Shown here: positions 20,922-29,442 of the stretch, in pieces
How positions within the stretch are numbered: the first letter of the stretch is position 1
Layout: every line of letters starts with the position of its first letter
From: Candidatus Jordarchaeales archaeon
GTDB taxonomy: Archaea; Asgardarchaeota; Jordiarchaeia; Jordiarchaeales; Freyrarchaeaceae
Assembly: GCA_038889235.1 (NCBI GenBank)
Contig: JAWAHN010000002.1
Coordinates: 435,397-467,396 of the forward strand
Direction: 5' to 3'
DNA: 32,000 bases
Program-made: the position numbers and the translations under genes
Notes under the pieces: model-generated
The model's database searches: none
What the model saw: the letters and a program-made list of their open reading frames with translations, nothing else
Told to the model about the DNA's origin: nothing

Positions 20922-22558
20922 AACTCACCGCCAGTCTCCGGCAGCTTCCCCGTCTCGCCCTTCTCCTTCTCTTTCTCTTCCTTGTGAGGCTTGCTCGCTA
21001 TAACGTCGTCGATCCTCAGTATCATCGAAGCAGCCTCGCTGGCGCTCTTTATCGCGTGCTTCTTGACTCTCAGAGGCTCCAGCACCCCGAGCTTAAGCAT
21101 GTCGTCCGGCTTGCCCGTCTGAATGTTCAACCCATAAGTCTTCTTGCCCTTGTCATGCTCAGCCCTCAAAGCCACCAGCGCGTCAAGCGGGTCGTGTCCA
21201 CTGTTCTCAGCCAGCGTCTTCGGAACAATCTCCACAGCGTCGGCGAAAGCTTCAATCGCCAGCTGCTCCTTCCCTCCAACGGACTCAGCGTACTTCCTCA
21301 GCTGCCTCGCCACCTCCACCTCGGCCGCGCCGCCACCAGCAACATACTTCTGGTCCTCTATAGCGTTCCTCACAACGCACAGCGCGTCGTTGAGTGCCCT
21401 CTCAGCCTCATCAACCACGTGCTCCGTCCCACCGCGCACCACGATGGTCACAGCCTTCGGGTTCTTGCACTCCCTCACGTAGACAACCTTGTCCTCGCCT
21501 ATCTTAACCTCCTCGACGAGTCCAGCCTCGCCAAGCACGTCCGGCGACAAGTCGTCGAAGCTCGTCACTATCTTAGCTCCCGTGGCCTTCGCGAGCTTCT
21601 CCATGTCACTCTTCTTAACGCGGCGAACCGCAAGAATCCCAGCCTTCGCCAAGAAGTGCTGAGCCAAGTCATCAATACCCTTCTGGCAGAACAGAACATT
21701 GGCACCGCTAGCCTTAACCTTGTCAACCATGCTCTTCAAGATCTTCTGCTCCTCCTCCAAGAACAGCTTCATCTGCGACGGGTCAGTGATCCTGATCTCG
21801 GCGTCAAACTCGGTCTTCTCAACCTCGAGAGGCGCGTCGACAAGCGCAATCTTCGCATCCTTAACCCTCTTAGGCATCGCCGGGTGCACGACCTCCTTAT
21901 CTATCACCATACCCCTGACAAGCTCTGTCTCAAGCAGACTCTTACCCTGCTTCTTCAAAATGTTAACCATGTCCCTGTCAGCCTCGTACTTCCCGTCCTT
22001 CTTCTCCGCAACCTGAAGTATGGCCTCAACAGCCACCCTGGCAAGGTGCTCCCTAGCGCCAGCCACAACCTTACTGTTAAGCGAGGTCATAGCAATCTTA
22101 GTCAAGGTCTCCACATCGTCCGGCTTAACATCCATGGCGATGCCTTCAAGAACCTCGACAGCCTTAGCCGCAGCCTTCTTGAAACCGTTCACAATGACCG
22201 TCGGGTGAATCTTCTGGTCGAGAAGCTCCTCAGCCTTCCTCAAAAGCTCACCAGCAACTATGACCGCGGTGGTCGTCCCATCCCCCACCTCGTCGTCCTG
22301 CGCCTTGGCAACCTCAACCATCATCTTCGCCGCAGGATGCTGCACATCTATCTCGTCAAGTATAGTCGCCCCATCGTTCGTAATTGTGATATCGCCGAGG
22401 CTGTCGACGAGCATCTTGTCCATGCCTCTGGGGCCGAGCGTGGTCCTGATAGCCTCCGCGACAACCCTAGCCGCCATTATGTTGCTGCGCTGCGCATCCC
22501 TACCACGTGTCCTCTCGGTTCCCTCCTTAAGTATCAAGACGGGGACGCCACTAATCAT
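20918..22558 (-). CDS. ths: Thermosome subunit (group II chaperonin)
   Basis: [34 protein letters not shown] motifs. The stop overlaps the convergent nitrilase stop. Confidence 0.97.
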
Positions 22559-23624: not shown

Positions 23625-24926
23625 CTTTCAACTCTCTCACTAAGATTCATCTTTATGTCGAAGTACTTTCAACTCTCTCGCTGAGATTCCTTGCCCTCCT
23701 TAAGAAGCCTGGCGAACCGCCTCAGCAGCCTCCAGTAAACATATATTACAATTGCAATATAGAGTATCAGGCCAGCCAGCTCCAACCCGCAACCCCCCGC
23801 TATGCTTTCGGCAGCCTTTCAACTCTCTCGCTGAGATTCTGTGCTGTTGGTCACCGTCCTTATGGCTTCGACTGTTTCTTTCAACTCTCTCGCTGAGATT
23901 CTTAAGCCTGTGCAGCCTAGTTGCCGGTAAGCCCATCGACCTTTCAACTCTCTCGCTGAGATTCCACGTATGCTGTCCGCATAGTAAACGATGTGCTCGT
24001 CGGGCACCTTTCAACTCTCTCGCTGAGATTCAGCCAAGCATATAGAGGCGGGAGAAGCGAAAGCTTCGTAAGCTTTCAACTCTCTCGCTGAGATTCAGAA
24101 CGACATAGTGCCAGCGCTCGACGGTGTGTTTAACCTCTTTCAACTCTCTCGCTGAGATTCGTGGCCCCAAAAGGCGCCATAGTCGTTCTCAGGTACGAGA
24201 CCTTTCAACTCTCTCGCTGAGATTCTGATCCACTCGACCTCGAACTCCGCTCTAACGCCCTTGAACTTTCAACTCTCTCGCTGAGATTCACGAAGACGAC
24301 TGCAAAAATAAGGGTTGCCGCGAGCACCTTTCAACTCTCTCGCTGAGATTCGACAGCATACCCCATATATGCAACGACCACTAGAGAACTTTCATCTCTC
24401 TCGCTGAGATTCTTATTTTATTAGTTTTTGTTGGTGGTGTTTATGAGTCTTTCAACTCTCTCGCTGAGATTCGAATCAGTGGAGCTAAGAACAAGTGCGT
24501 TCAACCCCCAACCTTTCAACTCTCTCGCTGAGATTCTCTCCAACCACTCCTTTTCTCCACATTATGTATATTATGTCTTTCAACTCTCTCGCTGAGATTC
24601 TGGAAAAAGAGGGGGTTGTCGAGTACAGGGAGGCGCAGAGGAGGATTCTTTCAACTCTCTCGCTGAGATTCTTGTTTTACCGCATCTATGTTCCAACGCA
24701 CACCAGCGTGCTTTCAACTCTCTCGCTGAGATTCTTAACAGCTGGCAAGCGTATGTTAACGGCTGGATCAGCAGCTCTTTCAACTCTCTCGCTGAGATTC
24801 TCACCTCGAACACGAAATCATAATGCGAACATCTATATTCTTTCAACTCTCTCGCTGAGATTCGCAGTATTTTGCAGAGAGAGCAGTTCCTGTTGTTGAT
24901 CACTTTCAACTCTCTCGCTGAGATTC
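23625..24926 (-). CRISPR. CRISPR array: 20 repeats (24 nt, GAATCTCAGCGAGAGAGTTGAAAG) and 19 spacers
   Basis: Repeats start (plus strand) at 23625 (degenerate), 23666, 23816, 23878, 23941, 24008, 24073, 24137, 24202, 24266, 24328, 24389 (1 SNP), 24449, 24513, 24577, 24648, 24711, 24777, 24840, 24903. Spacers are 36-47 nt except one of 17 nt and one of 126 nt. The 3' GAAAG and the degenerate left repeat give the minus orientation. Confidence 0.99.
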
Positions 24927-25077
24927 CGAGGTATTTTTTTGTCTTTTTTGCTTTTTTTGTTTTTCTCTTTTTTGTTTTGTGGGGGGTTGTTTCGGCGGTG
25001 GTTGTTTTGTTTTTGGGTTGTTGTTTTTCGCCGAAGTGTGGGTTTGTGTTGTGGGGGTGTTTTGGTTTTTTTGTGTT
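24927..25077 (-). promoter_or_regulatory. CRISPR leader region
   Basis: Non-coding 151 bp between the cas4 stop and the first intact repeat; low complexity. Confidence 0.7.
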
Positions 25078-25671
25078 TTATGGGTGGCATATTTTTTTGT
25101 AGCCGCAGTTGTGGCATTTTGTTGTTTGTTTTATTGGTGGTAGTTTTTCTTTTTCGATTATTTCTTTTATTTTGTTTATTGTCCATTTTACGTGTTTTCT
25201 TATTTGTTCTGTTAGGGGGATTTCGATTGATTTTTTGTCTTTGAGGTAGTTTATTTTTATTTTTTTGATTGGTTTTCCTAGTTTTTCTTCTGCTAGCATG
25301 GCGTATGCTGCTGCTTGGTATATGTGTGCGGGGTATGGTTTTCTGGGTGCTTTTGTGTACTTGTTTTCTATTAGGGTTAGTCCGTGTTGTGTTTCTGCTA
25401 TTTCGTCTATGATTCCGTATATGCCTAGTTTTTTTGATGTTGCGGGGAGTTTGCTCCAGTGTTTTGTGACTGGTTCTTTTCTTTCTCCGCTGAGTGTGGT
25501 TCTGCGTTGTGCTTTTTTGTCTTCTTTTGTGTGGTGTTCTTTTCCTTCTTTCATTGTTTCTGTTGGTTTTTCTTTGTAGCCTAGGACTGCTATGTGGTAG
25601 ATTATTCTTGGGCAGAAGTGGTATTGTTTTATCCAGGTGACTGGGATTAGGTTTTCTTCGTCTTCTGACAT
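25078..25671 (-). CDS. cas4: CRISPR-associated exonuclease Cas4
   Basis: FCPR, GIIDEI, ENK, QAAAY, C-terminal CxxCxYxxxC. Confidence 0.95.
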   Translation of the reverse strand: MSEDEENLIPVTWIKQYHFCPRIIYHIAVLGYKEKPTETMKEGKEHHTKEDKKAQRRTTLSGERKEPVTKHWSKLPATSKKLGIYGIIDEIAETQHGLTLIENKYTKAPRKPYPAHIYQAAAYAMLAEEKLGKPIKKIKINYLKDKKSIEIPLTEQIRKHVKWTINKIKEIIEKEKLPPIKQTTKCHNCGYKKICHP

Positions 25672-25678
25672 GTTCTCT

Positions 25679-25966
25679 TTAGACGATGAGTTCTTCTTTG
25701 GCGTATTCTTCGAATGGTTTTCCTATTATTTCTCTTTGTGCCATGTCTGCTCTGCATATTGTGAAGATTTGTATGTTTCCGTCCGTGTTTTTCATTATTT
25801 TTCTGAGGGCTGCGGATAGTTCTTTTCTTCTTGAGCTTGTGAGTTTGCCGAGGAATGTGCTTCTCTGTATTCTTGCCAGCCCGAAGGCTTTGCAGGTTTC
25901 GCTTACTTTGAGCCTTGTGTTGTCGTCGCTTATGTCGTAGACTACTAGTGTGTCCAAATTTTTCAC
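25679..25966 (-). CDS. cas2: CRISPR-associated endonuclease Cas2
   Basis: VVYDISDD, RIQRSTF; 95 aa; GTGA overlap with cas1. Confidence 0.95.
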   Translation of the reverse strand: MKNLDTLVVYDISDDNTRLKVSETCKAFGLARIQRSTFLGKLTSSRRKELSAALRKIMKNTDGNIQIFTICRADMAQREIIGKPFEEYAKEELIV

Positions 25967-26970
25967 CTCATTGTGAAGGGCTTGTAGTCTTGGGTTCTGG
26001 AGAGGAGGTAGTCTGCGATTCTCCTCGCCTGGAGGAATATGTGGCTGTGGAAGGGGAGGCGCCTGCCTAGGAAAGACACTTGCTCTGACAGTCTTTCGGA
26101 TACTGCTTTGACTGCTGCGAACCTCGCCTCTCTTTTAAGTCTCCCGTTTTCGACTGTTGAGTGCAGGTTTTTCATGCTCCACGCGAGTCTTAGCACCGCT
26201 CTGTCTACGACCGGCTGCCTGAACTCTTCCATGGCGTCCATTACGAGTGCCGGCCTTCTGGGTGAGTCTACGTGTAGGAACCCTGCGTAGGCGTCGAGGC
26301 CGGCTGACTCGACGGCGAGCCACACTTCCATGGAGAGCAGGGAGTAGCAGAAGTTGAGCATTATGTTGATGGGGTCGTCGGGCATCTCGAACCTCTTCCT
26401 CCTCCCCGGGAACCCTGCATCCTCTGGCAGTATGAGCTTGAAGCCCTCCCAGTATATCTTGGCGGCTTCAGCCTCCAGCTTCATTATCTCGCTTCTGACG
26501 TCGTCGACGCAGCTTCCCTCCAGGCTTAGGATTTCCTCCGCTATTTTCGCCTCCTCCTTGGAGAGCTCGATTAGTGTCGTTGAGAGGCGTGGCCTGTTTT
26601 TTCCCGCCTCCCTCAGGAGGGCTTTCTGGTTGACGACCTTGGCCCACGAGAACCTTTTTGCCAGGTAGGCTCCGCTCGGCTTGCCCTGGGCGCTGTACTG
26701 GGCTTTTCGCAGCGCGACCGTGCCTTTCCCCGTGAAGCTTGAGAGCTTGGCTTCAGGGTATCCGCCGGAGTAAAACACGATGTCCACGTTGTGCCTTGCG
26801 AGGAGGGTTACGACCGCTGAGGACATTGACGCGCCGCGCGTCAACACTACTACTTGCCCTATGTTTGAAGGGGAGACTTCTAGTATTTTCTCGCCCCTTT
26901 TCTTGACAACCACCATTCCCTTCCTAGCTGACAGGAATGTTCCCGGCTCGTTTATCACGAGTCTTTTCAA
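25963..26970 (-). CDS. cas1: CRISPR-associated endonuclease Cas1
   Basis: LEAEAAKIYW, DPINIMLNFCY, GFLH, DAMEEFR catalytic motifs. Confidence 0.97.
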   Translation of the reverse strand: MKRLVINEPGTFLSARKGMVVVKKRGEKILEVSPSNIGQVVVLTRGASMSSAVVTLLARHNVDIVFYSGGYPEAKLSSFTGKGTVALRKAQYSAQGKPSGAYLAKRFSWAKVVNQKALLREAGKNRPRLSTTLIELSKEEAKIAEEILSLEGSCVDDVRSEIMKLEAEAAKIYWEGFKLILPEDAGFPGRRKRFEMPDDPINIMLNFCYSLLSMEVWLAVESAGLDAYAGFLHVDSPRRPALVMDAMEEFRQPVVDRAVLRLAWSMKNLHSTVENGRLKREARFAAVKAVSERLSEQVSFLGRRLPFHSHIFLQARRIADYLLSRTQDYKPFTMR

Positions 26971-27916
26971 CGCTCCCCCCTCTGCAGACTGGGTGGTACG
27001 GGCAGTAGCTTGGGCAGTTGAGTGGCTTTCCCGGGTCCCTTGAGGCGGAGACCACTTCGTGGGCTTCGTCCCTTATTTCTATGAACTCCCGTCTCAGCTC
27101 GTCTCCTATCACGAAGCACTTGACCTTGAAGCTTGGGACGGGGCCCGGGAACTTCACGTACACGATGAAGCCGTAGTCGACTGGGACTCCCTCCTCGGCT
27201 TCTAGTGCTAGGGCGTAGCCTGCGAGCGCGTAGGGGTGGAACTCCCTTTCCTCTCCGGTTTTAAGGTCTGCTACGGCGTTGAAAGGGGTGTACACGTCCA
27301 CGCTGAGCTCCCTGCTTAGACCTATGAGGCTTCCGTCGATCTTTCTCTCTGCAATGGGTGGCACCGTTATGCTCACCAGTGAGTCGACGTCCGAGTTTGG
27401 GTGCTTCGAGAGGGCTTGGTCCAATCTCGCCGCAGCCTGCACTGCAAGGAACTTGCAGAAGGCTAGGGCTTCGTCCTTCAGTTTTGCTTTAACTTCTCCG
27501 CTAACCTCTGAGAACATGTGATCCGCGTAGAGCAGTGCTTTCTCAACTAGGACGGCTGCTAGGGGGGCGACGGCTTCTATGAGCTCGAAGCCGCACTGGA
27601 CGTCGCCTGAAAACAGGAGTTTTTTAATGGTGAGCAGCATCTCTCGGTTGACGTTGTGGAGCACCACTCCTCTGGCGGTTTTGGCGCTTGCAGGGGCTTT
27701 TACTCCTAGAACCCTTTTGAGGTATATGTCGCGCATTGAAGCGCAGTAGCGTCCTGCAAGCTCGCTTACGCTGAAGAGGAGTGATCTGGATGGGGGTTCG
27801 ACGGGTGGGGAGTCGAAGGACCACCCTCTAAGCTCCTCGCTGACCCCCTTGAACCCGAGCTCGCGGCGTAGGAGTCTCAGGCGCCTGTCTAGCTCGAGCT
27901 TGTCGAGGAAAAGCAT
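26924..27916 (-). CDS. csa1: Type I-A Cas4-like protein Csa1
   Basis: EELRGW..PPV.P, SELAGRYC..RD, DLKTG, LAGYALALE, C-terminal CPSYCPYHPVC. Confidence 0.9.
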   Translation of the reverse strand: MLFLDKLELDRRLRLLRRELGFKGVSEELRGWSFDSPPVEPPSRSLLFSVSELAGRYCASMRDIYLKRVLGVKAPASAKTARGVVLHNVNREMLLTIKKLLFSGDVQCGFELIEAVAPLAAVLVEKALLYADHMFSEVSGEVKAKLKDEALAFCKFLAVQAAARLDQALSKHPNSDVDSLVSITVPPIAERKIDGSLIGLSRELSVDVYTPFNAVADLKTGEEREFHPYALAGYALALEAEEGVPVDYGFIVYVKFPGPVPSFKVKCFVIGDELRREFIEIRDEAHEVVSASRDPGKPLNCPSYCPYHPVCRGGSVEKTRDKRAGNIPVS

Positions 27917-28317: not shown

Positions 28318-29442
28318 ATGTTCGTCTCTCTTGGGATGAGGTTTCTGGCTAACATTGAGGCTTTGAACGCCGTTGAGAGTGTTGGGAACGTTACGAAGCA
28401 CAGGAGGGCTCCCATAGTTGTCTTAGACGAGAAGACTGGGAAATACACTATTAGGTATGTTCCGAGCATTAGTGGCGAGAGCCTGGGGCACGCATACCAG
28501 AGTAACGTGGTGGAGTTCGCCACGGAGGTCTACAATGGGAATCCGCCGGTCTGCAAGTGGTGTAGTAGGGGTGAGTTCTTCAAGTCTATGTCTCTGAAGT
28601 TTACGCACGAGGAGGCGAAGAAGGTTCAGGAGGAGCGCAAGTCTACAGCTGACCTTGAGTCTGTTAAGCACGAGTTTGAAAAGGCGGTCATAAGGTCGTG
28701 CCTGGTTGAGGACATTGGGGGCTTCCTCCTGGCTGAGGAGGATTTCCCGGTTAAGAGGACGTCTGTCTTCTTCACTGGGTACGTTGTTCCAACGCTTGAT
28801 TCTCTCGAAGCCACGGTGATAGACACGCAGTTCCATGCTAGGCATGCGCCTGTAATGGCGGGGAAAAAGGAGGAAAAAGAAGCGACGGGGAAAAAGGAGG
28901 AAGATGAAGTGGCGGGAGAGGAGAAGCAGAAAAAGCAGAAGAAGGAGGTCGCGGCGCAGATGATCTACTACGTGGAGGTTGCGTCTGCTGTCTATGGTAT
29001 GCGCATCGACATCGACTTGGACGCTATAGGTAGGACTAAGCTTGTGCTTGTCGAGGACGCTGTGGACGCTGAGGAAAGGAAGAAGAGGGTTTTGTGCGCT
29101 TTGGGGGGTCTGGCCCTCACGGCCCTCGGAAGGTTTGGCGCTAAGAGGAGCAGGTTTAACCCGATAAGTGAGGTTAAGAGCATCCTGGTGACGGTGTCCG
29201 ACGTTTACTCGTTCTCGGTTACACCGCCTCACACAAGGGACTACATAGCTTTCACTCTCAAGAGGGCTAACGCCGCGTTGGGCTTTATACAGGAAGCTGG
29301 CCTGAAGGGTGAGATCAAGCTTTTGGCGTACGATGGGGAAACCGGGGTGAGACTGGAGGGTGTCAGCTACTTCGACACACCAGAGGACCTCTTCAGGGCG
29401 CTCATAAACTATGTGAAAGAGAATTACCTTAAGCAGGGGTAG
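28318..29442 (+). CDS. cas7: Type I-A Cas7 (Csa2/DevR family)
   Basis: ALNAVESVGN, ISGESLGH, EDIGGFL, VKRTS, FGAKRSRF. Confidence 0.93.
   Translation: MFVSLGMRFLANIEALNAVESVGNVTKHRRAPIVVLDEKTGKYTIRYVPSISGESLGHAYQSNVVEFATEVYNGNPPVCKWCSRGEFFKSMSLKFTHEEAKKVQEERKSTADLESVKHEFEKAVIRSCLVEDIGGFLLAEEDFPVKRTSVFFTGYVVPTLDSLEATVIDTQFHARHAPVMAGKKEEKEATGKKEEDEVAGEEKQKKQKKEVAAQMIYYVEVASAVYGMRIDIDLDAIGRTKLVLVEDAVDAEERKKRVLCALGGLALTALGRFGAKRSRFNPISEVKSILVTVSDVYSFSVTPPHTRDYIAFTLKRANAALGFIQEAGLKGEIKLLAYDGETGVRLEGVSYFDTPEDLFRALINYVKENYLKQG

Follow-up and report, generated by a model that had tools for sequence, protein, structure and literature searches.

Spacer acquisition by type I-A CRISPR-Cas systems has been characterized in Sulfolobus islandicus REY15A (bioRxiv 10.1101/486738) and S. 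solfataricus (PMC5815122). In these canonical cases csa1, cas1, cas2 and cas4 lie beside the leader, and the acquired spacers have a modal length near 40 nt and perfect repeats on both sides. Spacer length in Sulfolobus is set by Cas4 and Csa1 (bioRxiv 10.1101/486738). Archaeal spacers that exceed the ruler length are also on record. According to two reports on P. furiosus, Cas1-Cas2 integrates longer prespacers when Cas4 trimming fails; an aberrant 57-bp spacer occurs in a small locus, and longer spacers occur in cas4 deletion strains, the cases spanning 43-57 bp (PMC13748974, PMC7293040). The latter report gives a mean of 43-44 bp after Cas4 loss, a shift of a few bases and not a threefold one (PMC7293040). 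A much larger published example is SiL-E1, a pseudo-spacer of about 2 kb in CRISPR_2 of Sulfolobus islandicus LAL14/1, which contains five ORFs and can be aligned with pING1-like plasmids from end to end (PMC3718332).

Here we analyse a spacer of 126 nt found in a 32,000-nt stretch of DNA (the window) from a Candidatus Jordarchaeales archaeon. The CRISPR array occupies positions 23625-24926 and consists of 20 repeats of 24 nt and 19 spacers, 17 of which measure 36-47 nt (mean 39.9, sd 2.5). The spacer second from the trailer end (23690-23815, minus strand) is exactly 126 nt long, far beyond the spread of the others, and is flanked by perfect 24-nt repeats on its trailer side (23666-23689) and its leader side (23816-23839). 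The first-pass annotation had set this interval against normal spacers of 36-47 nt; its coordinates and content were right. The array also contains one 17-nt spacer, the truncated terminal and oldest one (23649-23665). Next to it a degenerate terminal repeat with two substitutions (23625-23648) marks the trailer end. Short terminal spacers of this kind were also observed in L076, L082 and L135. At the opposite end a non-coding, AT-rich leader (24927-25077) separates cas4 from the first repeat, and it is ~94% conserved in strains with other spacers. The repeat end GAAAG, the position of the leader beside cas4 and the degeneration of the repeat farthest from it, all established features of archaeal type I-A repeats and arrays, indicate that the array reads on the minus strand, and thus that the 126-nt spacer is the second oldest. 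A strong strand skew between positions 22500 and 26000 of the window flips across the array, the left side being A/C-rich and the right side G/T-rich.

The adaptation genes follow the leader on the minus strand: cas4 (25078-25671; TIGR00372 above cut-off, with four cysteines in an Fe-S pattern), cas2 (25679-25966; PF09827), cas1 (25963-26970; PF01867) and csa1 of the type I-A Cas4 family (26924-27916; TIGR01896 above cut-off, and PF06023). The cysteine clusters of both Cas4 and Csa1 are kept, and the adaptation genes look intact. On the plus strand cas7/csa2 of the type I-A effector operon (28318-29442) has a csa5-like gene upstream, whose profile score is below cut-off, and a cas5a-like gene downstream; among the effector-gene profiles TIGR02583 and TIGR01874 scored above cut-off and TIGR01878 below. 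Orthologous loci contain cas3 and cas6. With csa1-cas1-cas2-cas4 and I-A effector genes in place, the locus is an ordinary type I-A CRISPR-Cas system.

As in canonical type I-A acquisition, the 126-nt segment is in register with the array, between two full repeats and beside the same adaptation gene set; unlike a canonical spacer (about 35-47 nt), it is three times the normal length. Like SiL-E1, it is an over-long insert in an archaeal array, with an identical repeat on either side and further spacer-repeat units beyond; also shared are the absence from other strains and the candidate routes, faulty processing or recombination. In contrast to SiL-E1 it is a gene fragment at most, and no source was found for it in the collections searched. 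The P. furiosus cases resemble it as archaeal spacers over ruler length, which are tied to missing Cas4 trimming (PMC13748974, PMC7293040), whereas here both cas4 and csa1 are present and intact-looking. Being far over normal length, flanked by identical repeats and followed by more units, the segment appears to fit the known class of oversized spacers.

Mis-assembly is common in CRISPR arrays, and other arrays of the same genome (G000), one of them with duplicated spacers, lie at contig ends, so that collapsed repeats or a chimeric join had to be considered. Near-identical matches to the hsp20 and cas4 proteins that flank the array led us to the orthologous locus in other assemblies. Two Logan assemblies, L162 and L163, carry the same trailer, including the 17-nt spacer, the same 126 nt base for base and the same neighbours. 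L162 is identical to the window and may stem from the same sample; L163 differs by two SNPs and one extra 39-nt spacer and represents a separate array variant. The same segment and neighbours were assembled separately from two sequencing runs, one of them from a variant population, and an assembly artefact is so improbable that we regard it as excluded. The extra spacer of L163 lies between the window spacers 24413-24448 and 24473-24512, pointing to internal spacer loss or gain in the population. In strains with ~97.5% identity around hsp20, the array at this site is built on the same repeat but has different spacers and no trace of the 126 nt. A search of the family's four species genomes did not detect the repeat. 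Thus, the 126 nt has been passed on in a single lineage, and close relatives can do without it.

Other departures from regular spacing were seen in these genomes. The contig ends C1, C2, C3 and C5 of G000 hold more arrays, built on a second repeat of 36-37 nt; the C1 array has one 54-nt spacer and two tandemly duplicated spacers, and an apparent 121-nt spacer in one of the genome's other arrays was rejected, as it conceals a repeat into which one base has been inserted. Sister strains carry a 1,035-nt insert between two repeats of the array at the hsp20 site (L149:4335-5369, also L150 and L164, partly L152). This insert contains a 142-aa ORF that is internally duplicated and belongs to no clear family. 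Bracketing it are two near-copies of the second CRISPR repeat of the host (36-37 nt) and, at both ends, a short direct repeat. Beyond the array ~9 kb with the leader, adaptation and effector genes is missing, so that the array abuts C2:469382 of G000. The 1,035-nt insert is more unusual than the 126-nt spacer.

We searched for the source of the 126 nt at several levels. There was no match elsewhere in its own genome (blastn, tblastn) or, by DNA, in 60 relatives. Both open frames found no source in 400 genomes of the phylum, where two weak matches were rejected for internal stops, nor in 5.8 billion proteins searched also at longer lengths; the minus frame found none in JGI metagenomes and GTDB genomes. 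The single match among 1.84 billion representatives (E 5e-4) was to a repetitive, probably spurious ORF and was rejected. IMG/VR gave no source for either frame or for the palindrome described below, and matches seeded there with 17-mers extended over 17-22 nt only. INPHARED phages yielded no source, and PHROGs, Pfam, ESM Atlas and Rfam no match. The segment did not overlap any of 73 second-type spacers of the genome (a core match that missed part of one array) or any of 2,228 metagenome spacers. The other spacers of the array had no full match in the genome either, and one of them searched in IMG/VR gave chance matches only; the viruses of this host are therefore probably unsampled. With no protospacer match in any collection, the contiguity of the segment is judged from features of the DNA itself and from comparison with other arrays.

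The first-pass annotation had described the segment as a membrane-protein coding fragment. Minus-strand frame 0 indeed comprises 42 stop-free codons with the translation quoted there, a hydrophobic helix (19-residue hydropathy maximum 2.13) followed by a basic segment. Plus-strand frame 0 is open too, and an open frame does no better than chance: one is present in 42% of dinucleotide shuffles, in 66-87% of trios of randomly joined real spacers and in 89-96% of genome windows. Since most real-spacer trios are open as well, a stop-free frame hardly separates a single capture from fused spacers; it is weak evidence, and we dropped it. An open frame combined with an equally hydrophobic helix is rarer: the frequency is 0.2% for shuffles, 0.8-2.1% for spacer trios and 2.3% for genome windows. 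Also as described, a 20-bp near-palindrome spans 23742-23761, with one mismatched pair. Its equivalents turn up in 0.1% of shuffles, in 0.37% of genome windows and, when the same peptide is recoded at random, in 0.9% of cases. As it lies over Tyr- and Ile-rich codons, it may be a by-product of these codons or a putative binding site of the donor element. Neither the predicted crRNA nor the DNA strand of the 126 nt folds better than shuffles.

The length of the segment raises the alternative that three normal spacers were joined in a decaying trailer after the two repeats between them were lost. Three spacers of this array would sum to 119.8 +/- 4.2 nt, a value with which 126 nt is compatible (P of 126 or more = 0.11), and deletions have evidently struck the trailer, as the 17-nt spacer and the degenerate repeat next to the segment show. 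Such a fusion, however, requires two adjacent, nearly exact deletions of repeats only, while recombination between repeats takes out a repeat plus a spacer and not a repeat alone. The claim that no repeat remnant is left inside the segment held up: the best local score against the repeat is 6, a value attained by 89% of random genome windows.

Internal composition pulls in both directions. A codon-position model trained on host genes and applied to each third of the 126 nt chose the same frame (minus 0) in all three, and frame-consistency scores as high are reached by 0-1.3% of fused trios against 9-31% of contiguous windows. The thirds differ in GC content (0.62/0.33/0.67), the middle one being AT-rich; a spread of this size is found in 4-9% of fused trios and in <1% of contiguous windows, making it ~10x commoner in trios, in a test picked after the sequence was seen. 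The joint test of frame consistency and GC spread gave 0.001-0.008 for contiguous and 0.0007-0.005 for fused segments, and adding the helix as a feature makes it lean to fusion. Frame consistency thus favours one piece and the GC mosaic favours fusion, and jointly the result is a draw.

Comparative data from arrays with sister repeats, indirect as they are, break this tie in favour of one piece. We scanned 120 metagenome loci, which gave 2,228 distinct spacers. Twenty of these are of at least 50 nt and eight of at least 56 nt; their lengths run smoothly from 50 to 62 nt, followed by one spacer of 80 and one of 111 nt, plus a 165-nt gap whose outer repeat is doubtful. There is no peak near double the normal length. 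The 111-nt spacer (L113:1137-1247) has a perfect repeat on each side, and all of it can be aligned with a viral terminase large-subunit gene (30/37 aa; 89/112 nt, 79% nt identity), one of the matches being on a contig that also encodes a portal protein; it is thus collinear with one foreign element over its whole length. Arrays of this repeat family thus do contain contiguous captures of nearly threefold normal length. The L113 array resembles the one studied here in its closely related 24-nt repeat, its normal spacers of ~40 nt, and in an insert about three times that length that lies between perfect repeats and keeps one frame across all thirds. It differs in that the source gene is identified, the spacer lies near one array end beside a 56-nt spacer, and the host is another one. 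The long neighbour suggests an episode of poor trimming in L113. The 80-nt spacer (L110:3582-3661) stands last in a short, degenerate array. None of the 2,228 spacers was shown to be a fusion, and the only long one traced to a source proved contiguous. With the common frame of the thirds and the missing double-length peak on one side and the fitting length and GC mosaic on the other, we consider fusion of three spacers unlikely. That the 126 nt is one contiguous piece, counting in copying by recombination, we hold to be quite likely.

A contiguous piece need not have been placed by Cas1-Cas2. It might have been copied in by recombination or repair, a normal spacer recombining with its target and carrying flanking DNA into the array, a route named for SiL-E1 beside faulty protospacer processing (PMC3718332). 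All evidence for contiguity applies equally to this possibility, and it explains a threefold length without an integrase having to hold 126 bp. It needs, however, each end to have been joined cleanly or through homology, whereas the segment meets a perfect repeat exactly on either side, and the smooth tail of spacer lengths between 47 and 111 nt resembles a trimming distribution; we regard recombination as a rather improbable origin.

One untrimmed, over-long capture by normal machinery remains the explanation we think probable. It is supported by the perfect flanking repeats without an internal remnant and by the identical segment in two other assemblies, and the smooth length tail, the L113 terminase spacer and the frame shared by all thirds make it the most likely reading. 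In such a scenario the type I-A adaptation complex (Cas1-Cas2 with Cas4 and Csa1) would have integrated, early in the life of the array, a fragment ~3x the normal length, with the ordinary duplication of the repeat; the fragment would probably be coding sequence of a viral or plasmid gene for a membrane protein. Later spacers would have entered at the leader, leaving the segment near the trailer to be inherited passively, and its transmembrane reading would be a fossil of the donor gene and not a host function. We thus infer a foreign piece of DNA inserted through failed trimming. The small length shifts that follow Cas4 loss count against untrimmed capture as the cause of a threefold length. 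A single untrimmed prespacer had already been proposed by the first-pass annotation, and it stands as the most likely reading on the grounds of L113, the length tail and frame consistency, but not on that of the stop-free frame offered for it. The view that such a capture is unexpected with both Cas4 and Csa1 present was overstated, given the low rate of over-long spacers in the repeat family and the 2-kb case of SiL-E1 (PMC3718332).

Adoption of the segment as a small gene was also considered. A formal ORF (23669-23785, minus strand) opens with TTG at 23785 and ends at a stop codon in the downstream repeat, and could in principle yield a 38-aa membrane peptide from the unprocessed transcript. 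The ORF exists as the annotation had claimed, its product resembles a helix followed by basic residues, and a run of six G (23793-23798) lies 7 nt upstream of the TTG in a host with a canonical anti-SD and G-rich ribosome-binding words. Against this, the peptide or its frame has no called gene and no homologue in the 400 phylum genomes, JGI/GTDB, the protein collections, PHROGs, Pfam or ESM Atlas, searches whose sensitivity is limited by the short queries. Sister strains carry other spacers at the locus and lack the 126 nt, the leader is ~1.1 kb away, and whatever the spacer, one of the three frames runs into a stop in the repeat that follows. Moreover, the best-scoring frame of the ten codons preceding the TTG is again this one, and TTG 23785 is therefore more likely an internal leucine than a start. 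Nothing shows that the spacer is used as a gene, and translation of the peptide appears highly unlikely. The same very low probability attaches to the corollary that Cas6 cleavage would remove the repeat-supplied stop and so tie peptide output to the state of crRNA processing.

In type I processing Cas6 cuts eight bases from the 3' end of each repeat. From this established biology, Cas6 would free a crRNA of ~150 nt from the 126-nt spacer, which may load extra Cas7 and target weakly or only through its PAM-proximal part. In a type I-F system additional Cas7 is recruited by longer crRNAs, whose activity is lost once more than about nine bases have been added (PMC4937334), which makes weak or partial targeting a reasonable guess, by analogy across subtypes from I-F to I-A.

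The 126-nt spacer does not point to a new system. The traced L113 case provides a rough natural rate for contiguous captures of this size, one traced among about 2,200 spacers of the repeat family. If the 126 nt is one capture, it would be a natural case of integration at ~3x the ruler length by an archaeal Cas1-Cas2 system despite intact-looking Cas4 and Csa1, and would have a modest bearing on the strictness of spacer-length control and on the recording of longer DNA in CRISPR arrays.
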